IMG/VR virus record: IMGVR_UViG_3300028591_000128
Span: 42,311 to 106,310 of that record
Source of the DNA: a virus
Lineage: Duplodnaviria; Caudoviricetes
Direction: 5' to 3' (one strand)
DNA length: 64,000 nt
Translations under genes and position numbers: made by a program
The notes under the pieces: generated by a model
Databases searched by the model: none
What the model was told of the DNA's origin: nothing
The model's input: only the letters and a program-made list of their open reading frames with translations
Shown here: positions 8,001 to 59,887 of the stretch, in pieces
How the letters are laid out: each line of letters starts with the position of its first letter
Numbering within the stretch: position 1 is the stretch's first letter

Positions 8001-11000
8001 AAGGTACAGGATAGCCATTACCATAATAGTCCACATCATCCTCAGTAGCATCCGGATCTGAACAATGTAGCACGGATCCGCACATCTCATAGAAGTCTAC
8101 ACCACTAGAAATATCCCAATCATCCAATGATGAGTAATCAATGATACCAGGAGATGGACTAGCCTCATCAGGTTCTAGAGCTTCTAATCTACTAAACATT
8201 TGCCGGAAGTTAGTTATGTGTGATACATCCCATCCAGATAAATCTATTGCACATAACTTACGCCAACGTGTGAAGAAATTAGATAAATCTGTTATAGATG
8301 GATCAAATGTCCAGTTTTTAGCTTCAAAGTAGTATATATGATTATCTGCAAAGAATGCTTTTATCTTATTCAATGTAGATACACTGTCAACATGTATGTT
8401 ATTCAGCACCACTTTAGGTACGCTACATAGATCCATTGCATGTGAATAATATGTTAAATTGCTGAAATTAAATGTTGGCAATTTAATATAGAAGTTATCA
8501 GGATGTTCTACATTTAATGGAACTGCATAATATCCAGTGTCTCCTACATAAACATCCTCTGAATATGCTGGATGTATATCATCATCTTCATAGCGTGAAT
8601 AATGGTAGTAAATAGGTTTAGATGTAAATCCGTGAAACATGTGTTCTACATCTGTCACATTCCGTACATCCCATTCAGAAAGATCTAATGGTAAACAAAT
8701 ACCTCTAGCATCTGCAAACATGCTATTCATATCTTGTGCAGATGAACTTACTTTCATAGAGGAGAAATATCCAGTCTCATATTCAGATGTTGGACTGACC
8801 CATGCAGATAATGAATATGCACCTCCAGACCCATATGCTGATATACTATGTGTATCTGTATGAGTATCATAATCATCTCGTACATATACACTCTGTTTAC
8901 CTAGAACACCCTCAAGCATGTGGCTGAAGTTTACACCACCAGAACAATCAAGGTTCATCAATGCAGCACTAGCTGATGGTAACTGATAAAACGCATAAGA
9001 AAAATTGGTTACACTACTTACATCCCAGTTTATCGCATAACCTGTATATGCGTGTGGAACATAACCATTTGTCAACGCAAACGTGTAAAAACCATATGCA
9101 GATTCATAATCCAATTGAGATAATTTGTCAGTTTGATAGAACATGCCCTCCATATTTTCAAGATTGGGCGTACAATCATAGTCATCTGCATAGAAGTTTA
9201 TGAAAATGGAAGAACCATCATATCCAGTTATACTACTAAACATGTAGGATGTATCTGTAAGATATGGAAATCCACCATTGGAATTAGCATAAAGTGTTCC
9301 AGGACTCGATCCAGCATTTATATCTGCACCATCAAACATATGTGACATACTAACTGCGTATTTAGCAAAATCATATTCGTAATCATATAGCTGTACATAA
9401 GCTATAGTAGAATGATAGAACATGTAAGATGCATCTACTTCACGATTGAATGTAAACCATCCGGAATTGATACTATCTGCATCAATGTTTGCAAGCATAT
9501 ATGTTGCATCTATAGGATATGCTGATTCATGAGTAGAAGATCCAAAAATGAACTTCGCACCATTCACCAAATAATATCCCGAATGAGTATATATACCAGG
9601 GTTAGCACCATCAAACATATGACTTACATTTTCAACATTTGGTAATTCCACTGGATCAGATCCATATATATTAGAGAATTCACCATTAAATTCGGAAAAC
9701 ATATATGATGCGTCTGTTACGTTTGCCAGTACATCCATGAATGCGGAATGACCCTCTGGGATTTCGTATACGCTTCCATTGAAGATTCCATCAAAAGAAT
9801 CTACACTACCTTGGAACATCCCTTTGGTAGATGTTACATTTACTGCGGAATCTATTCCAAATAACTGCCATGTAGTATGTACATGATATGCAGGATCAGC
9901 ATTACGTCTAGTAAGTTCAGTAGATTCTCTAGATGCAAATAAGTAATCCATATTAGTTACTCTAGAATAATCCCAATCCAATAAATCTACAAACAATTCA
10001 TTTGGATTATCTTGCGGAGATAAACAAGTGTAAAATGCATTCATGACCGTATGGATATTTTCATCATCTAAGAATCCGATTGGAGTTGCCTCACAAGTGT
10101 AGAATATCTGATCTGATAATGTTGTAGTTCCTGAGTGCTCCCAATCCCCACTTACTGCGTATATAGGATATTCGTCCATTGATGTAGGAATTGTAGATGT
10201 TGGATATTGCTTAATTTCTGAAGCATCAATGTAATCAGTAGTATTGGTGAAGTCTCCACCTATGTAGTACCCAGAGTAATATCCAGTTTCCGGATTGTAT
10301 AATTGAACGATGCGTCTGAGCTTAGGAGTATAGTATCCTGAAGATGGTAATAATTCTGCGAAGTCATCAGCATATTCATTTGGAAGATATGTGTAATCAA
10401 CTCCATTAAAATGCCATTTAGTCATATCCTGTGTAATCATTGTAAGATTATAGAACGGATCTGTAGTTCTTGTGCTATAGTTTACTTCACCTTCAGCAGT
10501 CCACCAAAATATTGTTTCTGTGTCATCTTCATTTGTAACAAAATCAAGATACAGATTCTCTTCCGTACTAAATACAGTAGGGTCAACAAGATAACCTCTT
10601 TTCTCATCTGCCTGTTCAAAATAAACAGAACGACTACGAGAAGGAAGTTTCTCCAAGAATATTTTATTTAAAGCTCCAGAACTTGTTGCTCCTGTTGTAA
10701 GATAGAAATCATGATATGCAGGAGGCTCTGGAACAGGTTCAATGGAACCTTTTAGGAATTCGTTGATGCTTCCTATCTGTATCTTCCATACAACTTGTAC
10801 AACTTGATTTGTTCCAACTTTTAGTATGTTCTCTTTGAGGATCTTCCTGTTTTCTGGAACAGTCATATCCCAGTTAGATTCATTTGGAGGACCGATTCTA
10901 TATCCTGCAAGAAGTCCATTTTCACTACCAAGTTGCCAAGTCTTTTTCGACCATAGACCTGCTTCTGTAATGAACACATAATCTTTACCTTCTTCACGAA

Positions 11001-39836: not shown

Positions 39837-42800
39837 TTATGGCGTTTTCTGTGTCAGTCCTAATGACATAGCAGAAAGTGTATCAATAAATGATGTCCCA
39901 CCTGCAGGTGTATTTGTTTGTTGAACAATCTGTCCTACATAAACAAGTATCTGACCTAGTAGAATATTTGTTTGTAATGTAGGATCTGTTGTTTGATCAG
40001 TTATAAGAGTATCAGCAAGTACTTGACCCATTTGGTCTGCAATACTCTTACGTTCTTCTTTCTTAGTATCTACCTTTATAGATTCAAGTTCTTTTAATAA
40101 TGTAGAGGATCTAAATTTTCCATTGGATGATACACCATAGTAAGAATTGTATGCCATATAGTCAGATAATCGTGTATAAAGTTCTTGGAAAGTTCCACCT
40201 CTTTTGGTTCCAAATCCCCAAAAATCACTTATTGCTTTAGTAAAATCTGACCAAGTAGATGCAGGATTCTCTTTAGAGCCGCCAATCCATTTTGCCCAAG
40301 CACCAGAAGAACCAACCCATTTACCCCAAGCACCAGTTTGTTTATCCGTACCCAACCACGCAAGCCAAGGTTCTGGATATTCATCTTTCGTCCAAGTTTT
40401 CCAAGAATCGAAGAAATCTTCATACCATTGTTCCTGATTTTGGATAACAACATCCAATTTAGAATGAAGTTCTGGAGCAAATGTATTTGGATAATATTCG
40501 TCCCAATAATTCTGACCTGACTTCCAAAAGGCTTCTTCCCGAAGATTTCTTTCATGTTGTTCTTCTTGACCGGCTTTTGCTTCAACATCTTCAAAGAATT
40601 TTTTAATATCAGACTCTTGATATCCTGCAGATTCCATTGCTTTATCTAAATCTGCAATACCGAATTTACCAGAAGTTGATGCCCAATCTTCATATGTTTT
40701 ACCTTGCTTTACAAATTCATCCTTGATATATGCTTGATCCATCATCCTATCAAGTGCTTGCTTTGCAGCATTTGCTGTAGCATTTAATGATGATGATGGT
40801 GCATTAGATGAAGATGTGAAAGTAGACACGAGATCAGTAGCAGAATTCAGTATCATATCTGCTATTCTACCTTGTGTTTTAGATACATTACGAAGGCTTC
40901 CCCAGGAATATTTGGAAGTAGGACTACTTACAGATGGATAGATACCATTTGCTTGATCAAGGAGCTCTTTCATTTGTGATATCGATGAAGATGCAAATCC
41001 ATCATTTCCATATAAAGTATTGGATATACCATACCAACCCTTAAACTCACTTGCATTCCCATATAAGGATCTTCCACCTATCAATTCGACAAGTGGTCTT
41101 GTTAAATTCAATGATTCGTTACGTGTAACAAGGTTTCTAAAATCTCTTGTATTACCCTGACCTACTTTAGTTAATTGCAACATCTGTGCAACATCTGCTT
41201 GCTGTTGGAAACCTTCATCAGCTGTTGCTATTACGTTACCAAGTTTCTTGAACCAAGAAAATGGATTTAAGAAGTCAAGTATCTTCTGAACACCTTCACC
41301 AATCTTGAGAAGTCCTTCTTTAGTTTCACCAATAAGTTCTACAGAGAATGTGGATTGAACTAAATCACGTTGCATCTGTTCATCCCACATATGTTGCTGT
41401 ATTGCTCTACTTGCTTCATTATCTAGGACTAATGCAAGCCCTTCATTGATCATATATTCATTGATCTGTTGATTTTTAAGCTGCTCGGTAGTAGTTGTGG
41501 TTTGACCTTCACGAAGAAGTGCCATGTTTTCAGATAGAGATGAATTATTCACGTTCATCTCTTTAATTGCTTTAGCAAGATCAGCAAAATCAACCCTTTG
41601 GAATGCCGCTGCATCTACACCAAATAATGATGCATATCCTTCTGCTTTTTCCATATAAGCATCTGGAGACTCTGTAAACATAGCAGATAGATTCTCAAAC
41701 ATTGCACCTAAGATTGCTTGTGGATCCTTTGCAAGTGCTCTAAGGAATTCGGTATTAGATGCGTTTACACCTGCTAAAGATCTAAGTGCAACGGTTTCAG
41801 AAGAATTGCCACCTGTAGCAAGTTTATTGATTACATTAACAAGTCCATCTGCTAAATCAGGTGCAACTGCCCCAATGTATCCTTGTACAGCTACTAATGT
41901 ACTACTTATGGCATCAATGTTATCAGATTGAGCTGCAAGTGCAATGTTTGCAGCATCTTTGTATAGTGAGGATGCGTTTTGTAAACCTGTAGTAAATCCT
42001 CCTGTAAGTTCTCTATCTGCGTAGAGAAGACTAGATGCAAAGGATCTTAAACTAGCATTGGCTTTCTCAATTGCTTGTGCTTCAGACTCTCCGGCTCTTT
42101 GAGCATTCGCAGCTACAGATGCGTAAGTTGCAGCGTAGCTGAAGAAATCTTGTGTAGGTACTGCTTTGTTTAATAGTGTTGCTTGATATGCGAATTCTTC
42201 TGCAATCTTATTGGATAATCCTGAATCTAGAACTTTCGCAAGGTTATCCATAAGGTTTGCGCCATTTACATATTTAGATAGACCTTCATTACGAATACGC
42301 TCTGCGTAGTTTGCCATGAGGTCTTGTACATCGGATTTAGTGTACCCTTGAGTTGCAGATATCTTGGTTAAATTACTATCCCAAGCATTATACAGGTCAG
42401 TAGCAGCTTTTTGAAGTAGTTCAAACGGATATTTGACCATAGTTTCATAGTCATCTTTCATCCGTTGTTTAGATAATTCAAGATTCTTCTTACGTGTTTC
42501 AACATCACGTTTGGATGCTGCTGAGAATGCACCGAATATTTGTTTTATTCCTGCACCAATATCCTTAAATCCTTCCATCAATCGGTCAGTAACTAATTCG
42601 AGTGCTACCATAGCACCAATTACTGCCCAACCATGCGGTCCCATTCCAGCAAGCATCTTTGTTACTTGACCACCTGCACCAGCTAAACCACCTGCACCAC
42701 CACCTGCACCAGTAAAGGCATTTACAACCTTTCCGGCACTATTACCAACATTAGCAAGTTGAGTTGCAATATCACCAGAGCCAGGTCCAATAATATGACC

Positions 42801-50604: not shown

Positions 50605-51684
50605 TTAGAATGCCATCATAAGTACACTATTTCTTGCAGTAATTGCATACATTTCTCCGGTATCTCTATCTTGCAGAAGACCACCATTGATTCCATAAGT
50701 ACCTCTACTAACTGCAATCTTATTTAAATCATGGGAATGGAGGAAATCTTTCATCTCACCAAATCCATAGTTTGTAATATCTATTGCGGCACCATCACGG
50801 ACATAATCTTTGATCTGTTTCTGAGTCATCTTACGGATTCCGGATGATACACTCATGATTTTCTTACGTCCACGGATATTAGTAGACTCCCAAATATCAT
50901 CAGTTTCACTTTCGTCATTCCATAAATCGATTTCCGCATCAGAATCTTCGTAAAAATCTACCCTGTTAATATATTCTTGCTGAATTTCTTCCCATTGTTC
51001 TAACAACCAATCAATGTTGGAATCATCTGCGGAAGTGAATTCAATTTCTGTATTCCAAACTTCGCCTGTTTCTTCATCGTATGGCATCATCCAATCATAG
51101 TCATATTCAGACATCCCCGAATTCTTTGGAAGATAGGCTACTTTTCCACAAAAAAGCGGATTACCATCACCATCATCAATCCATCCGAATACGACTGCCC
51201 ACTGATTTCCATCATCATCGTAATCCAAATTAACACAATAAGTTGTACTACTTGGACCATCCGAAAGTGCTTCAGTTATTGTATTACGAACCTTTTGTCT
51301 AATATTTGAATCACTTGAAGCCTTTACATATTTTTTCATATTACCACCTTCCCTTATATAGCTAGAAGCCTTTATATTTTTCGGATTACTTAGTATGTAT
51401 TCCTGAACACTATTCAATGATGTATTAGTATTGAATCCCCATGTAATATTATCAATATGAGAATTCCAACCATAGGAATCTGTTTCTGCATCTTGAATAA
51501 ATTTATTATATTTTCTTCTAGCAGAAGACTTGTTTGATGTAGTTAATTCATCTACCGGATTACCTACAGAACCATCTGAATATAACATTCCGATCCAAAT
51601 ATTATATGTTCCATAGTCATTAATATCTACTTCTATATAATATTTACCATATTCTGCACTTTGTACGAAAAACCAATTTTGCAT
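50605..51684 (-). CDS. hypothetical modular protein
   Basis: internal SD followed by MKKYVKASS; appears to be fused modules. Confidence 0.6.
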   Translation of the reverse strand: MQNWFFVQSAEYGKYYIEVDINDYGTYNIWIGMLYSDGSVGNPVDELTTSNKSSARRKYNKFIQDAETDSYGWNSHIDNITWGFNTNTSLNSVQEYILSNPKNIKASSYIREGGNMKKYVKASSDSNIRQKVRNTITEALSDGPSSTTYCVNLDYDDDGNQWAVVFGWIDDGDGNPLFCGKVAYLPKNSGMSEYDYDWMMPYDEETGEVWNTEIEFTSADDSNIDWLLEQWEEIQQEYINRVDFYEDSDAEIDLWNDESETDDIWESTNIRGRKKIMSVSSGIRKMTQKQIKDYVRDGAAIDITNYGFGEMKDFLHSHDLNKIAVSRGTYGINGGLLQDRDTGEMYAITARNSVLMMAF

Positions 51685-51704
51685 AGGATTACCTCATAAT
51701 AATA

Positions 51705-51905
51705 TTAATATGTACTATCTATAATGTCATAACTTAGGTATGTATCAATAGGTTCGCTTGTCTTGCGGAGTTCTTTATAATATTCCGGCGGAGGTACTAA
51801 ATCCTCATATACACGATATGCATAATTCTTATCAGTTGTTTCAAATACACACCAATCAAAATCATCATCAGAAACAAATGAAATAAAATAATTCATAATA
51901 GTCAT
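51705..51905 (-). CDS. hypothetical protein
   Basis: GAGGAAGG SD. Confidence 0.5.
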   Translation of the reverse strand: MTIMNYFISFVSDDDFDWCVFETTDKNYAYRVYEDLVPPPEYYKELRKTSEPIDTYLSYDIIDSTY

Positions 51906-52034
51906 CCTTCCTCATCTGTTAGTCATAATAGTAGTCTTCATCAAATTCATCAGATTCAGATTGCTTAATACAGAAATTCGCAATCTCTCATTCATATGGT
52001 ATACACAATCAACACATCTATGTACTACAAGGAT

Positions 52035-52316
52035 TTATACATCAAACACAATATCCTCTACACCATAATTGGATTCATCATATCCTAAGTATCTTCCTCT
52101 ATAATCATAATTCGGAATTCTAATCCGAAACCAAGTTCCAGCGGAATTACAGCCTACCAATTCCCCAATTACCGGTTCACCATATCTGTCAACCTTAACT
52201 TCAATTCCAGAAGTTTCTGGATAGCCAACACGACCACAATTACGTACTTTTGGTATAATTGACTTAATATATTCATCTACAGTAAGGTCACCGGAACAAT
52301 GTATATATCTTTTCAT
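52035..52316 (-). CDS. hypothetical protein (MKRYIHCS N-terminus)
   Basis: GAGGTG SD before ATG 52316. Confidence 0.55.
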   Translation of the reverse strand: MKRYIHCSGDLTVDEYIKSIIPKVRNCGRVGYPETSGIEVKVDRYGEPVIGELVGCNSAGTWFRIRIPNYDYRGRYLGYDESNYGVEDIVFDV

Positions 52317-52410
52317 AATCACCTCGAATCTCAAGTCTAAACAACCTATCGAACATATAAACAAGTCCTATATTACTATTAAAGGTTAAAACAAAAATGG
52401 AACTCACCAT

Positions 52411-52587
52411 CTAATCGGGAAGTTCCAATTCTAACACAAACGAATCTTTCTGTACCGTTGTAAGTGCATTTGCTATTCCATCAAAACTCGGTTCTAATCG
52501 TTGTTCAAGATAAATTCCAGGAGTACGGTCTGATGGATTTTCTGGATTTCTACCACGCATAGCACATGAAAAATATAATTTATTCAT
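52411..52587 (-). CDS. MTase TRD-like cassette 23
   Basis: CAMRGRNPENPSDR...EQRLEP..DGIANALTTVQKD. Confidence 0.7.
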   Translation of the reverse strand: MNKLYFSCAMRGRNPENPSDRTPGIYLEQRLEPSFDGIANALTTVQKDSFVLELELPD

Positions 52588-52717
52588 CTTCATCACCAAA
52601 ATAGATCACAAGAAAATCCATTCTACCTGAACGAAAGGCCGGTGCATAATTATTATAGAATCTTGCGTTTCTAACTGTTGCATATGTATCATCAACTATC
52701 CACATCTGAATCATCAT
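52580..52717 (-). CDS. MTase TRD-like cassette 22 (not in ORF track)
   Basis: MMIQMWIVDDTYATVRNARFYNNYAPAFRSGRMDFLVIYFGDEDE; GAGGT SD. Confidence 0.6.
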   Translation of the reverse strand: MMIQMWIVDDTYATVRNARFYNNYAPAFRSGRMDFLVIYFGDEDE

Positions 52718-52847
52718 CCTGTACCTCTATAATCTTCCAGCCATTCCTTAATGCAGAATGACCTATAGTCGTTGTTATACTACCAAGTATATCTGATTGG
52801 GATGGGATATAAGAATCATAATCATTATAGGCTATGAATTGTTTCAT
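52692..52847 (-). CDS. MTase TRD-like cassette 21 (not in ORF track)
   Basis: MKQFIAYNDYDSYIPSQSDILGSITTTIGHSALRNGWKIIEV; paralog of cassette 7. Confidence 0.7.
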   Translation of the reverse strand: MKQFIAYNDYDSYIPSQSDILGSITTTIGHSALRNGWKIIEVQDDDSDVDS

Positions 52848-53016
52848 AATCATCCACCACTATCATTGGAACTCTGCCACCACCTTGAGAAGTTGTTAGT
52901 GATGGACAAAAATATTCCGGATCCCATATATTTCCAGCATATCCAGTTCCAAAATCTTCATTATATATATTAGCAAGTTTCCTTACATTGAATTCCAATA
53001 TCTTTCCACCATTCAT
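52825..53016 (-). CDS. MTase TRD-like cassette 20
   Basis: GYAGNIWDPEYFCPSLTTSQGGGRVPMIVV. Confidence 0.7.
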   Translation of the reverse strand: MNGGKILEFNVRKLANIYNEDFGTGYAGNIWDPEYFCPSLTTSQGGGRVPMIVVDDYETIHSL

Positions 53017-53170
53017 ATACTGCAACATTTGCAAATCCATATCCATGTCCTGCACCACCACAAACAATAGCTGGAAATATTCCATCCGTGTGGACAACAA
53101 TGCCACCTTCGGAATTACCTGTACTATAATTACCTATTGTCAGTATTTTATTCGTATCTTGATTTATCAC
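52970..53170 (-). CDS. MTase TRD-like cassette 19
   Basis: GGIVVHTDGIFPAIVCGGAGHGYG; GTG start. Confidence 0.65.
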   Translation of the reverse strand: MINQDTNKILTIGNYSTGNSEGGIVVHTDGIFPAIVCGGAGHGYGFANVAVYEWWKDIGIQCKETC

Positions 53171-53298
53171 AAATAAGTACCGCCGTTACAGTTCCATGGT
53201 TTTCTTTCACACACGGAGCAACCCACCCCCACAGAAACAATTCTGGAAGCATCATGGTTGCTGAACATATAATTTCCTAAAATGATAATTTCATTCAT
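53148..53298 (-). pseudogene. MTase TRD-like cassette 18, frameshifted
   Basis: MNEIIILGNYMFSNHDASRIVSV continues in another frame as VAPCVKENHGTVTAVLI; one extra base in GGGGGTGGG (53222-53230). Confidence 0.6.
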
Positions 53299-53452
53299 CT
53301 TCATCTCTTACCAAAATGTATAATTTCTGTCCAGTCATTATTGTAGTCATTAGAGATGGGCATATTCCTTCTGAATCATATGTTGATCCATCATATCCGG
53401 CTTTACACTTCCCGGATACTCCACCCAAAAACATGATCTTAAAGTTATCCAT
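53291..53452 (-). CDS. MTase TRD-like cassette 17 (not in ORF track)
   Basis: MDNFKIMFLGG...STYDSEGICPSLMTT...LYILVRDEDE. Confidence 0.65.
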   Translation of the reverse strand: MDNFKIMFLGGVSGKCKAGYDGSTYDSEGICPSLMTTIMTGQKLYILVRDEDE

Positions 53453-53615
53453 CACTCACCACAACCCTTATCGGAGTTTTGAAATCTCTTGCCATCAATG
53501 TAGGTGCCAATCCACCAGCCGAATATATATAGCACCACTGGTGCATCTTTTCGCTACCATTCTCCGGAAGAAGTAATCCAACTGTTATTATTTCATTTTG
53601 TTCGGATAGAATCAT
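53445..53615 (-). CDS. MTase TRD-like cassette 16 (not in ORF track)
   Basis: MHQWCYIYSAGGLAPTLMARDFKTPIRVVV; paralog of cassette 3. Confidence 0.7.
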   Translation of the reverse strand: MILSEQNEIITVGLLLPENGSEKMHQWCYIYSAGGLAPTLMARDFKTPIRVVVSDG

Positions 53616-53796
53616 TATCAATCACCAAAATCGTAGTATCTTTTAATATAGTAGAAATTGTATTACAGATTCCATCTGTTCTTACAGACCAGGTTCTCAT
53701 ATTGCATCTTCGTTCAGATAATTCATGCGCTTCGTATTTCTTTCTGATTTGTTTTGCGTATTCTGTTCTTTCATATCGTAGGCATTGGAAATTCAT
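53593..53796 (-). CDS. MTase TRD-like cassette 15
   Basis: LRYERTEYAKQIRKKYE...RTDGICNTISTILKD. Confidence 0.7.
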   Translation of the reverse strand: MNFQCLRYERTEYAKQIRKKYEAHELSERRCNMRTWSVRTDGICNTISTILKDTTILVIDNDSIRTK

Positions 53797-53804
53797 AATA
53801 TTTA

Positions 53805-54470
53805 TTATTTACTGATAGTGTTATGAATACCAGATTCGTGAAATGACACTGCTACATAGCCATTATTGGTTTCATGATCTACATCTATTTTTATATATAG
53901 TTTCAATGAATCTATTGTAACAGGTGTGCCGTTTCGCTTTCTTGGTGGAAACGTAAATGGTCCAGAAATCTTAAAAATCATAAGAATATCATTCCACTGT
54001 TCTACATCAGTAGAGTATTTAGCAGATGTACAATCCCTATATGTCATAGCATCTATAATTTCTTTTGCATATTCATCAGTAAGTTTTGCCCCTCGATTCA
54101 AAAGCATCTGCTTAAAATCATTATTCTTATCGCTTGGTTTTATATAAATAAGTTCACAATCTTGAACCTTTTTTAATAATTTTTTCTTCTCCGCAGATGT
54201 AAGATTTATTTCATCAACTTCATTTGCATGATATACAATAAATTGTTGCATGGGAAACAATTCGTCATACGATAACTTACGAAGTGTTGGTACATCCCTT
54301 ATTTTTTCTCTAACATTGTCAGGAAGTGTCATAAGTTCATCATGATTCATTTTCGTGATATCTTTGCCCTTATAGTATTCACCAGCAGTAATATATTCAC
54401 GTATAGGGTGATATTCTGACACATCATCAACAACAATAATTGATACAATATTTAATGCATCTATATCCAA
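53805..54470 (-). CDS. putative MqsR-like toxin
   Basis: C-terminal LYIKID...VAVSFHES pattern of MqsR/RelE-fold RNases; downstream of an RHH gene. Confidence 0.5.
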   Translation of the reverse strand: MDIDALNIVSIIVVDDVSEYHPIREYITAGEYYKGKDITKMNHDELMTLPDNVREKIRDVPTLRKLSYDELFPMQQFIVYHANEVDEINLTSAEKKKLLKKVQDCELIYIKPSDKNNDFKQMLLNRGAKLTDEYAKEIIDAMTYRDCTSAKYSTDVEQWNDILMIFKISGPFTFPPRKRNGTPVTIDSLKLYIKIDVDHETNNGYVAVSFHESGIHNTISK

Positions 54471-54508
54471 ACCTATATCAGCAAATTCAGAAGTTCTAAT
54501 ATATCGTT

Positions 54509-54712
54509 TTATGATAGCAATTCCTTTCTACTTTCATAATATTCTATTGTTTTCAAGATATACTTTGTAACAGACAGATTCTCAGACTTCGCATATTCTT
54601 TAATCTGACATCTCATCCCTTTAGGAACATTTATAGCAACAGTATCATAATGCTGCTTATTGTATTCTGCCTGATATTTGATTTGATCAAACTTCTCACC
54701 ACTGTTAATCAT
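54509..54712 (-). CDS. ribbon-helix-helix (antitoxin-like) regulator
   Basis: YNKQHYDTVAINVPKGMRCQIKEYAKSENLSVTKYI; paralog of 48808-49005. Confidence 0.7.
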   Translation of the reverse strand: MINSGEKFDQIKYQAEYNKQHYDTVAINVPKGMRCQIKEYAKSENLSVTKYILKTIEYYESRKELLS

Positions 54713-54729
54713 AATATAGCCTCACCAAT

Positions 54730-54775
54730 AGAATACCACATATACTATTATATGTCAACACATATAATAGTATAT
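54730..54775 (-). promoter_or_regulatory. SigA promoter with 16-bp inverted-repeat operator
   Basis: TTGACA-N17-TATTCT; perfect IR atatactattatatgt (54740-55) / acatataatagtatat (54760-75) centred on the -35. Confidence 0.75.
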
Positions 54776-54780
54776 TAAAT

Positions 54781-54963
54781 TCACTTAATAGAATTTTTAA
54801 AATCAGAAGGAAGTACAATTTCTAAAACCATAGGAATCTTTCCACTACCGCGTTCCATAGTAGCCATAAGTGTTGGTGCAAGATAATCAAAATCATAAAG
54901 ATTAAAATGTTGACCGAAACTTTTATGGAATGTTCCTAAAACTTTTACTGTATTTTTCATCAT
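54781..54963 (-). CDS. MTase TRD-like cassette 14
   Basis: GQHFNLYDFDYLAPTLMATMERGSGKIPMVL. Confidence 0.7.
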   Translation of the reverse strand: MMKNTVKVLGTFHKSFGQHFNLYDFDYLAPTLMATMERGSGKIPMVLEIVLPSDFKNSIK

Positions 54964-55096
54964 TAATCACCAAAACAATCATAGGCACATACCCACCACC
55001 AGTACCCATAGAAGATGTCAAGCAAGTACAGATCCCATTTGTCTTTACGGATTGATGGTCTTGCATACCACCTATAATTACATCAAGAAACATCAT
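54923..55096 (-). CDS. MTase TRD-like cassette 13 (not in ORF track)
   Basis: IIGGMQDHQSVKTNGICTCLTSSMGTGGGYVPMIV. Confidence 0.7.
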   Translation of the reverse strand: MMFLDVIIGGMQDHQSVKTNGICTCLTSSMGTGGGYVPMIVLVINDEKYSKSFRNIP

Positions 55097-55241
55097 AAGC
55101 AATTACCAAAATCATAGGAACTTGACCACCACCTTCTCCGGCAGCGGCTGTTAATGTCGGACAAATGTATTCAGAATCAAATATAATTCTCCGTTGACTA
55201 CTATTCGGATTTAGTGTACCTAATGAACATATCTCCATCAT
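55083..55241 (-). CDS. MTase TRD-like cassette 12
   Basis: SQRRIIFDSEYICPTLTAAAGEGGGQVPMILV. Confidence 0.7.
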   Translation of the reverse strand: MMEICSLGTLNPNSSQRRIIFDSEYICPTLTAAAGEGGGQVPMILVIAYDVS

Positions 55242-55401
55242 CAACCACCAAATACAAGTTTGAAAATCCACCGACATTCCCTACAGGTTGTGCCATTAAA
55301 GCACAAGCAATATTGTCAGCAAGATATACAGCATTTCCCTGAGTGAACTTTCCTTCAAATTTTGCTATTTTCTTTGTAGTATTTTCTGTAAATTCATTCA
55401 T
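55201..55401 (-). CDS. MTase TRD-like cassette 11
   Basis: QGNAVYLADNIACALMAQPVGNVGGFSNLYLV; paralog of cassette 9. Confidence 0.7.
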   Translation of the reverse strand: MNEFTENTTKKIAKFEGKFTQGNAVYLADNIACALMAQPVGNVGGFSNLYLVVDDGDMFIRYTKSE

Positions 55402-55558
55402 CTTCAACTACCAAATATCTATAACTTCCACCTGGAATATTTGCTGGGTGGCATAGTGCAAATCCATCTGAAGAATATACACGATCTTGCTGATAGAATT
55501 GTGTCCCTCCATTAGAATTCATTTCACCAAGTCCACCCAATACAATCGGTTCATCCAT
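55394..55558 (-). CDS. MTase TRD-like cassette 10 (not in ORF track)
   Basis: MDEPIVLGGLGEMNSNGGTQFYQQDRVYSSDGFALCHPANIPGGSYRYLVVEDE. Confidence 0.7.
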   Translation of the reverse strand: MDEPIVLGGLGEMNSNGGTQFYQQDRVYSSDGFALCHPANIPGGSYRYLVVEDE

Positions 55559-55742
55559 CTTCAATCACCAAGTAAAGATTCGTCTGGCCACCTAAACTAC
55601 CTACAGGCTGTGATAGTAATGCTACGGCAATATAATTAGATGAATACACCCGGTTTCCCATTCTAAATCTACCACCAAAGTTTCTTTCGCCAAATGCTGT
55701 AATTCTGTATGGGAAATTTGTATTACTTACCGTCAGTTCCAT
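55551..55742 (-). CDS. MTase TRD-like cassette 9
   Basis: MGNRVYSSNYIAVALLSQPVGSLGGQTNLYLV. Confidence 0.7.
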   Translation of the reverse strand: MELTVSNTNFPYRITAFGERNFGGRFRMGNRVYSSNYIAVALLSQPVGSLGGQTNLYLVIEDG

Positions 55743-56433
55743 AACCTTCACGTACCATTCTTTCATCAGTTGTTTCAAAATTCGGATCATAAACAACTTT
55801 GTAAAGATGTTCCATTAAATATTGTACACAGTTACTAATCAAGCCATTCGTTGTGTTATCATGTAGTTTTTTATCTACACTTCTGCATCATTACAATGCA
55901 GACCAGCATATCTATTTACCAAAAGATTCTGCATCTTTTACCATCCGGTAGCGAGGCCTCTTGGGAGTATTATATTCTTAAACATCTCAGTTTAAGGTTC
56001 AACTCCTATGCGTTGCGGTTGACTAAACTTTTACATTTAGCCTTAACACTCTGATTACGGTTGCAAACCGTTTTCCAGCTTATTTCCTCACTTATAATCC
56101 ATAGTATACTTGATGGTTTCACTATGGACGGCATAACATTAGCTTCGCATTTTAGGCACTAATGTTCTGTTTACCTGCTTGCTTGTATAGCTGTGAATTA
56201 CTAACTCCGGCATCCTTACACTTTTGACAATCTTCTTTGGTCGACCCCATAAGGATAAAACATTCTTCCGGAGTAAGCTTACGAATCTTCAAATGTTTTA
56301 CCATTTCTTCCTGTTCTGGTGTAAGCTGAACTTCTTCCGAAGATAATTCTTCAACAGATTCTTCCGAAATTTCTTCAGAATCTTCATCTTCGTAATCTTC
56401 CCAAGAATCAGTTACTTTTACGTCTTCTTCCAT
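55723..56433 (-). CDS. C5-cytosine methyltransferase C-terminal subunit (motifs IX-X), spliced: exons 56433-56173 and 55848-55723
   Basis: IRKLTPEECFILMG (IX); SQLYKQAG|NGLISNCV (X) restored by removing the intron; 128 aa. Confidence 0.85.
55849..56172 (-). ncRNA. group I self-splicing intron (324 nt, no homing endonuclease ORF)
   Basis: 5' exon ends in U, intron ends in G; P1 AGGU/GCCU, P10 CAUU/AAUG, P3 AGUGAGG/CCUCGCU, P7 GCAUA/UAUGC, plus P2, P5, P6a, P7.1, P8 and P9 stems in canonical order. Confidence 0.88.
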
Positions 56434-56434
56434 G

Positions 56435-56666
56435 TTATTCCTCGCTTTCTATTTCCTCTATGACTACAAGACAATTCTCACATCCGCAAGTTAATGCTGG
56501 ACAAACACTTCCGGGGGGGGGTTCCTTGTGCTCTGCCACGTCTTAATCTACTTGATGGATAACTAAAATCCGCTACATGATAATCACCTGTTAACGGAAT
56601 TTCTACATATCCGAGTTTAGTTGCTTGCTTTATCTGTATTGTGTTCCCAAGAATCTGGATCATCAC
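56435..56666 (-). pseudogene. MTase TRD-like cassette 8, frameshifted at a C9 tract
   Basis: IKQATKLGY...DFSYPSSRLRRGRAQG; C8 instead of C9 gives GSVCPALTCGCENCLVVIEEIESEE*. Confidence 0.65.
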
Positions 56667-56802
56667 TAACCTCTATAATTTTCCAACCAGTTCTAAAAGC
56701 AGAACTACCTATATGTGTAGTTATTGCACCAACAAATCCTATACATATATCTGATGGAACTTTTGAATTAAAATCATCATATGCAATTATATTCACTACC
56801 AT
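56617..56802 (-). CDS. MTase TRD-like cassette 7
   Basis: IAYDDFNSKVP...VGAITTHIGSSAFRTGWKIIEV. Confidence 0.7.
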   Translation of the reverse strand: MVVNIIAYDDFNSKVPSDICIGFVGAITTHIGSSAFRTGWKIIEVSDDPDSWEHNTDKASN

Positions 56803-56976
56803 ATTTTACCACCACATAAGGATTCAATCCTCCACCTTGAGCACAATTTAATGCTGGAGATATACCACAAGGAAGATACACTCTATATCTTTGTGGATTA
56901 TCTCTTGTAGATTATCTCTTGTAGATTCTATCTGATGTGCTATAGATCCTACTTGATAGATTTCATTCTTGTTCAT
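56777..56976 (-). pseudogene. MTase TRD-like cassette 6, frameshifted by a 14-bp tandem duplication
   Basis: removing one attatctcttgtag copy gives RDNPQRYRVYLPCGISPALNCAQGGGLNPYVVV. Confidence 0.7.
56897..56924. repeat. 14-bp tandem duplication (attatctcttgtag x2)
   Basis: read directly from the sequence. Confidence 0.9.
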
Positions 56977-57124
56977 TAACTAATACCTTCGGTGCATCTT
57001 TATAATGAGTAGATTTTAGACAGCACATAACCCCATCAATAGAATACACTTCCTGATTCTGATGGATTTTATCAGATGTCATACCAAGCAATCTACCCAG
57101 GTAGATCATATCATTCTGATTCAT
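56963..57124 (-). CDS. MTase TRD-like cassette 5 (not in ORF track)
   Basis: IHQNQEVYSIDGVMCCLKSTHYKDAPKVLV. Confidence 0.7.
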   Translation of the reverse strand: MNQNDMIYLGRLLGMTSDKIHQNQEVYSIDGVMCCLKSTHYKDAPKVLVNEQE

Positions 57125-57272
57125 ATATTAATATCCTTGGTGGATTTCCGCAGTGCATGGCACGTAATGCACAGATAAGTCCTTCGCTGCTATACACTTC
57201 CCGGTTCTGTTGGAATTTTTGTCGTTCTTCTACATATAGTCTACCGACTATTTGGATGTCCGATTTATCCAT
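57111..57272 (-). CDS. MTase TRD-like cassette 4
   Basis: FQQNREVYSSEGLICALRAMHCGNPPRILI. Confidence 0.7.
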   Translation of the reverse strand: MDKSDIQIVGRLYVEERQKFQQNREVYSSEGLICALRAMHCGNPPRILIYESE

Positions 57273-57427
57273 TGATGTTCTCCAATAAGTATTTGCCTGG
57301 GTGATTTCCAATCCCGAGCAGTACAAGTAGGTGCCACACCATTACTATCATAAATGTAATCCTGAAGATGCACTCTACCACTATTTAATTCTGGCTGAAC
57401 AATTCCAGCTATAATGATGTTATGCAT
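57248..57427 (-). CDS. MTase TRD-like cassette 3
   Basis: HLQDYIYDSNGVAPTCTARDWKSPRQILI. Confidence 0.7.
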   Translation of the reverse strand: MHNIIIAGIVQPELNSGRVHLQDYIYDSNGVAPTCTARDWKSPRQILIGEHQWINRTSK

Positions 57428-57578
57428 CTTCCACCACCAATACATTTATTAGATTTCCAGACCGTAAACAAAAACTTATTCCATCACCAAATATCTCTAG
57501 GTGAGTGATTCTTTTATTTCCATGAAGGTTGTAAAACCGATCTATTGGTTTTTCTTCCACAGATTCAGCATATATCAT
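57420..57578 (-). CDS. MTase TRD-like cassette 2
   Basis: DGISFCLRSGNLINVLVVEDA. Confidence 0.6.
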   Translation of the reverse strand: MIYAESVEEKPIDRFYNLHGNKRITHLEIFGDGISFCLRSGNLINVLVVEDA

Positions 57579-57747
57579 CTTCGTATTCAACATATGCAAT
57601 TGCACCTGTGCATCCATAAATTCCCCACTCACCAAGATTCTTTACATTGTTTTTATAATATTGTGCTTTCAGAGTTCTACATAAACCATCTGTATCATCA
57701 TTCAATGCTGATATATATAGGACTCTGAATTTCTTATCACTGTTCAT
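57565..57747 (-). CDS. MTase TRD-like cassette 1
   Basis: LNDDTDGLCRTLKAQYYKNNVKNL...GCTGAI. Confidence 0.7.
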   Translation of the reverse strand: MNSDKKFRVLYISALNDDTDGLCRTLKAQYYKNNVKNLGEWGIYGCTGAIAYVEYEDDIC

Positions 57748-58642
57748 CTGATTTCTTCGTAAGATCAACTTTTACTTTTCCGTTGACTACCAAATCCCGG
57801 ATAAGTGCCTGTGCTCTTTCATTTGTAATATAATACTTTTCATCTACATCTTTCTGAAGAACATCTTTCAGACGGATTCCTGTATCATATGGCTTTGGAA
57901 ATTCAAATGTAGAAAGATCATATTTATCACGAAGCCAATAGATTGCAAATACACGCTTACGATTCTGAGGAACACCACAGTTCTTACCATTGATTACATC
58001 CCATTTACAATCATATCCAAGTTCAGCAAATTCTCCATTAAGAAGTTCAAACTGAGGAAGATTCTTCTTATTTACAAGTGCATCTACATTTTCCATAAGA
58101 AGAAACGGTGGAAGAACATTAAGTTCTTTCATGTTTCCGAGAATACGAAGAACCTCATAAACCAATCCGGAACGTGTTTCACCCTTAACCATACCGGCTT
58201 GACGACCAGCCAAACTGATATCGGTGCAAGGAAAGCTAAATGTCAGCAAATCACAATAAGGAAATTCTTTTACCATACTAATATCACCAACATTCTTATT
58301 CAACTTATTCGCAAGCCAAACAGTTTCCAAAAACATATTAGTATCTACACTACATACCAGCTTCAGCCAATCATAAGGTTTATTTGCAAGAAAATCAAAA
58401 CCAATATTCATCTTCTGAAGTTGCCTTGCCATAGTAAACCTATCTGGATAAAACAAGTATGTTTCAACCATCTTACGAGTAAGACCATGATGAATTGCTG
58501 CATAAGAAATAATTGCATCTGTATCCAATTCACATGTGTTTACTACTTCCATGTCAAATAATCCGGTATTACGGATGCCCATCTCTTGAAAACCTATACC
58601 GGAAAATGTAGTTACTACTTTCAACGGAATTTTATTCTCCAT
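57737..58642 (-). CDS. C5-cytosine DNA methyltransferase, N-terminal catalytic subunit (motifs I-VIII)
   Basis: FSGIG (I), CELD (II), SFPCTDIS (IV), MENV (VI), PQNRKRVF (VIII); stops at the start of the variable region. Confidence 0.9.
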   Translation of the reverse strand: MENKIPLKVVTTFSGIGFQEMGIRNTGLFDMEVVNTCELDTDAIISYAAIHHGLTRKMVETYLFYPDRFTMARQLQKMNIGFDFLANKPYDWLKLVCSVDTNMFLETVWLANKLNKNVGDISMVKEFPYCDLLTFSFPCTDISLAGRQAGMVKGETRSGLVYEVLRILGNMKELNVLPPFLLMENVDALVNKKNLPQFELLNGEFAELGYDCKWDVINGKNCGVPQNRKRVFAIYWLRDKYDLSTFEFPKPYDTGIRLKDVLQKDVDEKYYITNERAQALIRDLVVNGKVKVDLTKKSDEQ

Positions 58643-58735
58643 GATAATCCCTTTCTACATATAAGATGATATTTACATTGTAGCACAAACTAATGAAATG
58701 AGCCACAGTATTTATAACGATTCTTAATACATAAT

Positions 58736-59887
58736 TTATGTATGTATCAGTATAACATTTTCACTTTGAAGCGTCGATCTATGTATATGAAGTTCTTCTG
58801 AATCAATATATGATTTGCAGATATGTTCAAATTCTGCAACATCGTTGTCTGTAGATGTATTATCAAAATTTAAATACATTATGCATCCGGTTACATAGGT
58901 TTCGCAACATTCATCAGAAGATCCAAATGGAAGTATTGATACACCACACACAGTAAATCTATCGCACTTATTATGAACTGTGTCTATAAATTTTACTAAA
59001 CTGTCATGCAGACTCTTCGAAATTTTTGGTTCAGAGCCAAAGTATCCATGTTCCTTGACATCATTATATATTGTATAATTTATGTAAAAATTCCGTACTC
59101 CACAGCAAGCATAATTCATACTTGAAAAATCTTCACCAAAAAATAGGGAGTTTTCCCTGTAATTAATCCGTTCCATTGCACAGTCTAAATTGCAATTTTC
59201 CGGTAACATATTATCAATTATAGTATAATCAATTCCCCAGGACTGCATAACATGATTTGGCATAACATATTCTGGTGATATATCGTGCATGATCGCATCT
59301 TCGCAACACCATAATATATCATAATAAACTGAAATCTGTGTGGAAATTGGTAATGAACTAACTTCATCTACAAATCTTGCCTGACCTATTGCACACATTG
59401 CACCTACACTTATGGATATGTTAAAGTCTTCTTTATCAATATCATGAAAACTACAATCCAATGTGCACATAGGATCATCACCTATAGTAATATACTCAGA
59501 AACTTTTGAAAATAAGTGGTATATGACTTCATTAGACAACTGAATCCAATAAGGTATACGGACAACAATATATCCTAAAGATTCAAAATAGTCATCACGT
59601 TCTCGATCATTCAAAACAACTTGTGGATCTTGATAATGTGCGATACCATCAAACTCAACAATAAGATTAAGTTCCTCACATCTAGCATCAGGCTTGTATC
59701 TACGAAGTTTTGCATCTTTGTTTCTATTAAATACAACATCTTTTGGTACATTGGAATTATAAACAAAGTCATAACCATTAAATATGTATGACAAATACTC
59801 CTTTAATGGTGTATTACGATTCGGATCAAAATATTTCACATCAGATTCACGTAGATATTTCCATCGCATAGTTTCTAGTTTTTCCAT
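58736..59887 (-). CDS. DUF559/Vsr-like PD-(D/E)XK endonuclease domain protein
   Basis: KPDARCEELNLIVEFDGIAHY...DRERDDYFESLGYIVVRIPYW. Confidence 0.7.
   Translation of the reverse strand: MEKLETMRWKYLRESDVKYFDPNRNTPLKEYLSYIFNGYDFVYNSNVPKDVVFNRNKDAKLRRYKPDARCEELNLIVEFDGIAHYQDPQVVLNDRERDDYFESLGYIVVRIPYWIQLSNEVIYHLFSKVSEYITIGDDPMCTLDCSFHDIDKEDFNISISVGAMCAIGQARFVDEVSSLPISTQISVYYDILWCCEDAIMHDISPEYVMPNHVMQSWGIDYTIIDNMLPENCNLDCAMERINYRENSLFFGEDFSSMNYACCGVRNFYINYTIYNDVKEHGYFGSEPKISKSLHDSLVKFIDTVHNKCDRFTVCGVSILPFGSSDECCETYVTGCIMYLNFDNTSTDNDVAEFEHICKSYIDSEELHIHRSTLQSENVILIHT

Follow-up and report, generated by a model that had tools for sequence, protein, structure and literature searches.

The 106-kb phage record IMGVR_UViG_3300028591_000128 contains an array of 23 short, tandem open reading frames (ORFs), C1–C23, which together with the two parts of a C5 cytosine methyltransferase lie on the minus strand. 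The array was analyzed in a 64,000-nucleotide (nt) stretch of this record (positions 42,311 to 106,310), here called the window, and window coordinates are used throughout. We consider it likely that the joints between these ORFs are overlapping stop/start junctions of separately initiated mini-genes, each for a single target-recognition domain (TRD) of a phage C5 methyltransferase that is split and multi-specific. The joints are probably also boundaries of recombination, and the TRD mini-proteins are probably coupled in their translation. It is the prevalence of long overlaps, not the reading frame, that sets the array apart, and the data support the view that the Shine-Dalgarno (SD)-like sequence at the joints is kept up by synonymous codon choice.

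The array runs from the N-terminal core of the methyltransferase through C1–C8, the C-terminal piece of the enzyme, C9–C14 and an inserted gene pair (an RHH gene and a gene of 221 amino acids, aa) to C15–C23. Its methyltransferase parts and cassettes are as follows.

57737..58642, minus strand: N-terminal core, C5 cytosine methyltransferase with motifs I–VIII, 301 aa (PF00145, E = 1e-41, profile positions 22–209 of 324)
56435..57747, minus strand: cassettes C1–C8, ATGs at 57747, 57578, 57427, 57272, 57124, 56976, 56802 and 56663 (from the ORF chain and its frames)
55723..56433, minus strand: C-terminal piece with motifs IX–X (PF00145 profile positions 258–307); exon 1 56433–56173, intron 56172–55849 (324 nt), exon 2 55848–55723
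54781..55742, minus strand: cassettes C9–C14, downstream of motif X, ATGs at 55742, 55558, 55401, 55241, 55096 and 54963, every joint in +1
52411..53796, minus strand: cassettes C15–C23, starts at 53796, 53615, 53452, 53298, 53170 (GTG), 53016, 52853, 52717 and 52587

We counted the abutting joints among the core, the 23 TRD mini-genes and the C-terminal piece, reading through three frameshifted cassettes (C6, C8 and C18). At 22 of the 23 joints the next ATG or GTG is in the +1 frame of the upstream gene (p = 3e-6 against a coin toss), including all eight internal joints of C15–C23; the sole exception, C3|C4, is +2 and uses CAA TGG. A preliminary description of this DNA had given 21 of 22 with the same exception, a difference due only to the choice of joints counted, and the junction words it quoted were found: GAA GAT GAA TGA at C10|C11 and C17|C18, GAA GAT GCA TAA at C2|C3, and AGT GAT GGA TAA at C16|C17. 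The overlaps measure 8 nt at six joints, 11 nt where the core stop overlaps the C1 start, 14 nt at four joints, 20 nt where the stop of the C-terminal piece overlaps the C9 start, and 23, 23, 25, 26, 26, 29, 41, 41, 47 and 47 nt at the others; the C-terminal piece starts 1 nt past the C8 stop, in the +1 frame. Measured from the upstream stop, the start lies within −8 to +1 nt at seven of the 23 joints and within −14 to +1 nt at 12, and the remaining 11 joints overlap by 20–47 nt. Among 66 co-directional gene pairs outside the array there are 12 overlaps, four of 1 nt, five of 4 nt and one each of 8, 17 and 41 nt. Nine of these 12 are 1 or 4 nt long, in agreement with the contrast drawn earlier between the array and a baseplate operon with mostly 4-nt ATGA-type overlaps. 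Long overlaps (at least 8 nt) are present at 22 of 23 joints in the array and at 3 of 66 pairs elsewhere in the genome (Fisher p = 1e-16).

The +1 frame is the default, because the ATG composition of this AT-rich genome predicts that 88% of long same-strand overlaps are +1. Within the genome's long genes, ATG occurs at 0.0614 per codon in +1 and 0.0082 in +2, a 7.5-fold ratio; an xAT codon followed by a codon starting with G is common, whereas an ATG in +2 requires a Cys, Trp or TGA codon. The 21 of 22 observed among the long overlaps of the array do not differ from this expectation (p = 0.24). Start codons are far commoner in phase 1 of same-strand overlaps through amino-acid and codon composition (Sabath, Graur and Landan 2008, PMC2542354), and the share of phase 1 here matches the value that this model derives from start-codon frequencies in either alternative frame. 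Three long overlaps outside the array are likewise +1. Seven more loci, whose joints were curated by eye, contain 64 long-overlap joints between cassettes; about 58 of these are +1 (about 91% family-wide), and among the +2 cases several use a Trp codon or are plain ATGA overlaps. An excess of +1 over composition was suggested when ATGA-type +2 ATGs were counted, and it was gone after conditioning on long overlaps. A conspicuous regularity of frame may thus be a compositional by-product, and caution is warranted in reading one as a signal.

The initiation signal is a different matter, being real though of moderate strength. Aligned as a logo, the 23 joints share the consensus TTGGTGGTTGAAG-ATG-AA and show an excess of G from −13 to −7; the SD-like GGTGG sits at −11 to −7, inside the upstream coding sequence, as is found in coupled gene pairs. 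Two joint cores serve as examples.

55394..55412, minus strand: joint core C10|C11, GGTAGTTGAAGATGAATGA, with an SD-like G run, the ATG within GAT-G and the C10 stop 8 nt after the ATG begins
53291..53303, minus strand: joint core C17|C18, GAAGATGAATGA, a 12-nt word; the related locus L002 has an extra cassette at exactly this joint

With the start fixed by rule as the last ATG before the stop, the mean duplex energy with the anti-SD sequence is −4.9 kcal/mol at the joints (−5.8 if the best of the candidate starts is taken), compared with −1.8 at internal ATGs and −9.2 at ordinary long-gene starts. Synonymous resampling of the upstream frame gives −1.95 kcal/mol instead of −4.9, with p = 3e-4 for the window, 2e-4 for the independent lineage L010 and 2e-9 for 61 joints from seven loci. 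The bias is visible in single codons: TTG accounts for 9 of 14 Leu codons at the joints (15% genome-wide) and GTG for 11 of 26 Val codons (11% genome-wide). The earlier suggestion that terminal Leu-Val codons double as SD sites is therefore borne out by the G-rich block of the logo, by the enrichment of TTG and GTG and by the resampling in two lineages; and, the SD-like sequence being held by codon choice, the tail of each cassette does carry the initiation signal for the next, as had also been proposed. Locus L010, whose core is 60% identical to that of the window, uses another joint dialect, TAAGGAGAAAAA-ATG. Its tails are basic (V-R-R-K-N-E), whereas those of the window are acidic (V-V-E-D-E), which argues that the tail residues follow the initiation signal and not protein function. 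Cores of joints from one genome resemble each other more than they resemble those of other genomes (p = 0.0005).

Judged by homology, the short ORFs C1–C23 are TRDs. Residues 1–51 of C6 align end to end with TRD 2 of a conventional 517-aa four-TRD enzyme, P0102 (49% identity, E = 2e-14), and C3 aligns with TRD 1 of the same enzyme; the array as a whole consists of several tandem, sequence-diverse TRDs homologous to the variable regions of C5 methyltransferases. Motifs I–VIII and IX–X reside on separate ORFs, as in M.AquI, and no single ORF of the window combines motifs I–X with all the TRDs: the core, each cassette and the C-terminal piece have ORFs of their own, whose frames rotate, and 15 cassettes come after both motif X and the stop that ends the C-terminal piece. 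Relatives of the core of about 300 aa occupy more than 100 database clusters. Fusions are found across the family, of core with TRD (P0034, P0047), TRD with TRD (L004, L005) and TRD with C-terminal piece (L004, L010), along with a complete single chain (L006), and from this variety it follows that splits and fusions occurred repeatedly. Downstream of the single-chain, 517-aa methylase, L006 retains a C9-type cassette remnant that lacks a start (L006:11602–11748), so cassettes after motif X occur beside the single-chain form too. A literature search found no published description of arrays of separately encoded TRDs.

The bodies of the cassettes are under purifying selection, the ratio of nonsynonymous to synonymous substitution rates (dN/dS) being 0.21 over 578 codons against L002, the one locus used for this estimate as synonymous sites are saturated against more distant loci. 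Free-standing ORFs of the C6 type (55–72 aa) form 44 database clusters that share a conserved 46-aa body with unrelated heads and tails; heads and tails of orthologous cassettes are likewise not conserved, and in L002, which lacks C7, C6 ends in the tail that C7 bears in the window. With ribosome-binding codons under selection, cassette bodies under purifying selection and neutral heads and tails, the joints offer the best sequence-level evidence that each TRD mini-gene is translated.

Three cassettes of the window are frameshifted. In C6 the cause is a 14-nt tandem duplication (56897–56924) with two copies of CTACAAGAGATAAT; L001, a 98%-identical relative, has a single copy and an intact C6. 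Cassette C8 is shifted at a run of nine C residues (56513–56521), being out of frame in three genomes and intact in L007, and C18 is shifted within a G-rich run and is intact in L001. Conversely, cassette C9 is broken in L001 and intact in the window. Homopolymer tracts inside cassettes were also seen in relatives as runs of eight or nine G (L001:15071; L002:15724, 15820 and 16178; L004:11370), and the three broken cassettes of L002 (C16', C17' and C18') each have a run of nine. Broken cassettes differ among close relatives and mostly break at G or C homopolymers, a pattern that looks like on/off switching of single cassettes.

Comparison with related loci indicates that the unit of turnover extends from start to start. 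Against L002, whose core is 87% identical to that of the window, all 12 ends of homology within the array fall 13 nt or less from a cassette start codon. The gain or loss of C7 runs exactly from ATG to ATG, that of C11 has its break inside a 21-nt word common to the C10|C11 and C11|C12 joints, and the extra L002 cassette at C17|C18 has the 12-nt word GAAGATGAATGA on either side. Between the starts of C2 and C6, L002 has other cassettes in place of C2–C5. The place of C14 is taken (L002:12644–14687) by a gene for an N6/N4-type methyltransferase (213 aa) and an IS200/IS605-type TnpB gene (436 aa), with the left breakpoint at the C13|C14 joint, and instead of the 221-aa gene and C15 L002 has other sequence, up to a right breakpoint at the C16 ATG. 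Overall, for L002 and L007 taken together, 17 of 24 homology ends lie 10 nt or less from a start, where 14% would be expected (p = 3e-10), and cassette order varies among relatives. Mapped in this way, gains and losses of cassettes break at joints, and the idea that some joints act as micro-homology recombination sites between related genomes holds for the shared words of 12–21 nt; such repeated words argue, from sequence comparison, that homology helps in some events. The preliminary description had named the combination of a frame bias explained by xAT-G composition and breakpoints unrelated to joints as what would speak against its reading. The former is what we found (88% predicted, 21 of 22 observed), and the latter is not, since the breakpoints do coincide with the joints.

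These features suggest the following scheme. The codons of the last beta-strand of a cassette (Leu-Val-Val, with the rare TTG and GTG) form the SD-like GGTGG, and 6–7 nt downstream an xAT codon followed by a codon starting with G supplies the ATG of the next cassette; the upstream frame runs on to the first out-of-frame stop inside that cassette, 8–47 nt later. Each cassette would be started on its own by ribosomes, probably through termination-reinitiation coupling at the dozen joints that overlap by no more than 14 nt and through fresh SD-driven initiation at the longer ones. The head of a cassette (Met and a few residues) and its tail (past the next ATG) would be by-products of the neighbor and not functional peptide. 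Cassettes would be gained, lost and swapped as start-to-start units, some events proceeding via the 12–21-nt words common to the joints; such swapping is possible because any neighbor gives a nearby stop and any hydrophilic tail gives an ATG. The TRD mini-proteins presumably function in trans, together with core and C-terminal piece, for which M.AquI and M.EcoHK31I are the precedents. The long overlaps may have originated by frameshifts in linkers, after which the upstream frame would read on to the nearest out-of-frame stop, and an ATG, which composition offers mostly in +1, would be required for the downstream frame. More tentatively, the boundary might have a dual purpose, the short shared word (SD-like strand codons plus GATGAA) both starting translation of the following unit and serving as homology for exchange, duplication and deletion. 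If that were true, the array would be an evolvable, hot-swappable library of methylation specificities, in which homopolymer tracts toggle units and leave the neighbors undisturbed. The start-to-start unit also defines what to clone or swap, and the free TRDs of 45–55 aa are candidates for trans-acting specificity subunits of a C5 methylase.

Several points weigh against reading the joints as junctions of separately initiated, coupled mini-genes. Translation, coupling and trans-assembly of the cassettes are all things that we infer. Termination-reinitiation has been demonstrated for a downstream start about −8 to +10 nt from the upstream stop (PMC10666635), a range exceeded by the 11 overlaps of 20–47 nt. 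The SD strength at the joints is well under that of ordinary genes (about −5 and −9 kcal/mol, respectively), five joints are almost without an SD, and the joints share ancestry and are not independent samples. Against L007, six or seven of 12 homology ends are at joints and the remainder inside cassettes, and breakpoints at joints could mirror the survival of intact cassettes instead of a preference of recombination. Finally, a lone C6-type cassette modeled by AlphaFold2 with a 34-row alignment gave a low-confidence fold (predicted local distance difference test score, pLDDT, of 52).

Three other explanations of the array were weighed. In one, put forward in the preliminary description, the uniform +1 offset is itself a selected standard, a plug-and-play grammar beyond composition. 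The start-to-start indels, the extra cassette flanked by the 12-nt joint word, the differing cassette order and the resemblance of joint cores within genomes would all suit such a grammar, yet the share of +1, in the window and family-wide, is not above the compositional expectation, the three other long overlaps of the genome are +1 too, and heads and tails are unconserved among orthologues. Moreover, the joint in front of the C6 type is +1 in the window and +2 in L002 and L007, which shows that the offset need not be fixed, and we regard this grammar as unlikely. Less probable still is that the cassettes are untranslated, either as a library of silent donors from which gene conversion would fill an expressed TRD slot or as the remains of a decaying, once in-frame multi-TRD gene. 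The three frameshifted cassettes of the window and the others in L001 and L002 might be taken for decay, and the fusion of C8 to the C-terminal piece in L004 and L010 has the look of an expression slot. However, start codons and SD-like codon bias are present at nearly all joints in two lineages, the low dN/dS speaks of selection on the protein, random decay would leave +1 and +2 shifts without start codons, and breaks that differ between close relatives, mostly at G or C homopolymers, fit the on/off switching of expressed units.

The least probable of the three, and in our opinion very improbable, is programmed +1 ribosomal frameshifting at each joint to yield one multi-TRD polypeptide. The uniform +1 offset with an SD-like motif upstream does recall prfB, a relative (L006) has a conventional in-frame four-TRD enzyme, and in L004 and L008 the first TRD is start-less behind a run of nine A, though in the −1 frame. 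Every cassette of the window, however, has its own ATG or GTG. The last sense codons are of 14 kinds (GAA, GGA, GCA, TGC, AAA and others), none re-pairing in +1, all three stops are in use (TGA 12, TAA 10, TAG 3), and the overlap length varies sixfold, from 8 to 47 nt. The G-rich block precedes the ATG by 6–7 nt, a spacing suited to initiation, and the stop by at least 12 nt, compared with 3 nt in prfB; neither hallmark of a prfB-type site, a shifty P-site codon re-pairing in +1 or an SD about 3 nt upstream, was found at the joints. At least eight successive shifts would make the yield negligible, and the 15 cassettes after motif X lie beyond the stop codon that closes the C-terminal piece. 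The earlier thought that the joint tails could be +1 frameshift sites is thus not upheld, and we return to separately initiated mini-genes as the preferred reading.

Inteins within cassettes were rejected, the cassettes being too short and without the motifs, as was stop-codon reassignment, since the frames differ and not the stops alone. A diversity-generating retroelement or shufflon was also rejected; no inverted or template repeats were seen on reading, with no dedicated repeat search made. In L004 and L008 (L004:10860–10880; L008:10884–10903) the core gene ends in GTA AAA AAA AAC, a run of nine A, and the first TRD (RYDAGICKH type) follows in the −1 frame. Core and TRD would be fused by one additional A or by a −1 slip on A-AAA-AAA; this arrangement is identical in the two assemblies, which come from different samples. 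This core|first-TRD joint may be a candidate for programmed slippage, in those two loci and not in the window.

The gene pair within the array is not of cassette type.

53805..54712, minus strand: RHH gene (54712–54509, a weak Arc/RHH match) and 221-aa gene (54470–53805), inserted in the array

The pair has its own promoter-like site (54758–54730), the best promoter match of the region (10 of 12 positions with an extended TG). In the promoter and terminator scan the number of sites was no higher than in shuffled sequences and the RHH promoter alone stood out, and promoters specific to single cassettes are therefore not supported. While the RHH gene is conserved, its partner varies, being 221 aa in the window and L001 and an unrelated 186 aa in L002 (window 53805–54775; L002:14797–15578; L001:18554–19309); L001 also has a second pair of an RHH gene and a 180-aa gene that resembles the L002 partner. 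From their sequences, such pairs have the appearance of swappable two-gene modules of the toxin-antitoxin kind. The 324-nt intervening sequence of the C-terminal piece (55849–56172, minus strand) splits motif X (QAG|NGL); it is missing from L001, where the ORF is uninterrupted, and present in L007. Its blastn matches are in unannotated parts of large phage genomes, those of Yersinia phage phiR1-37 and Bacillus phage Goe21. Scanned with Rfam at E values of up to 1, positions 51000–59000, intron included, yielded no meaningful family, and blastn against 50,697 phage records found no relatives of the array, only the short intron matches. Other insertions were seen in related loci. In L007 an ORF for an HNH endonuclease (L007:13045–13743) is inserted in the +1 frame at the joint of the C-terminal piece and C9, and the C9 behind it is broken; in L002 the core gene (about 9030–10065) is interrupted precisely at the catalytic Pro-Cys of motif IV by an intein-like insert of the LAGLIDADG type, and intein Pfam matches (PF14890, PF07591) occur in many database relatives.

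The multispecific C5 methyltransferases of Bacillus phages SPR, phi3T, rho11s and H2, studied in the Trautner laboratory, have one catalytic core and several tandem TRDs of about 45–55 aa, each presumably with its own target. The array resembles these enzymes in that one core serves tandem TRDs, and L006, whose TRDs include homologues of C3 and C6, represents the single-chain form. In the Bacillus-phage enzymes, however, the TRDs are in frame in one polypeptide, between motifs VIII and IX, whereas those of the array are separate ORFs and 15 of them lie past motif X. M.AquI and M.EcoHK31I are two-polypeptide C5 methyltransferases with the conserved motifs divided between separately translated chains (PMC3404938). 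As in M.AquI, motifs I–VIII and IX–X are separate in the array, and a small trans-acting chain would be needed; these enzymes have two chains and one specificity, with no free-standing TRD or TRD array. The likeness to the prfB +1 site consists in an SD-like motif upstream of a stop with continuation in +1, but the joints have no shifty codon, the wrong SD spacing and an own start codon for each downstream frame.

As in coupled overlapping genes (Huber et al. 2019, 2023; PMC6728339, PMC10666635), the genes of the array are co-directional, the next start is at or before the previous stop, the SD lies within the coding sequence upstream and the products probably belong to a single complex as its subunits. 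Overlaps in those systems are mostly 4, 1 and then 8 nt, longer ones being rare, whereas 22 of 23 joints of the array overlap by 8–47 nt, half of them by at least 20 nt, with two dozen genes chained. The phase-1 bias of Sabath et al. (PMC2542354) recurs here, the 7.5-fold ATG ratio accounting for the +1 rule. Unlike that neutral, genome-wide model, the overlaps of the array gather in a single gene family and contain SD-like codons under selection. The joints are a variant of the common coupling between overlapping genes, with a frame that follows the published null model; what is useful here is the selection on SD codons and the placing of the breakpoints.

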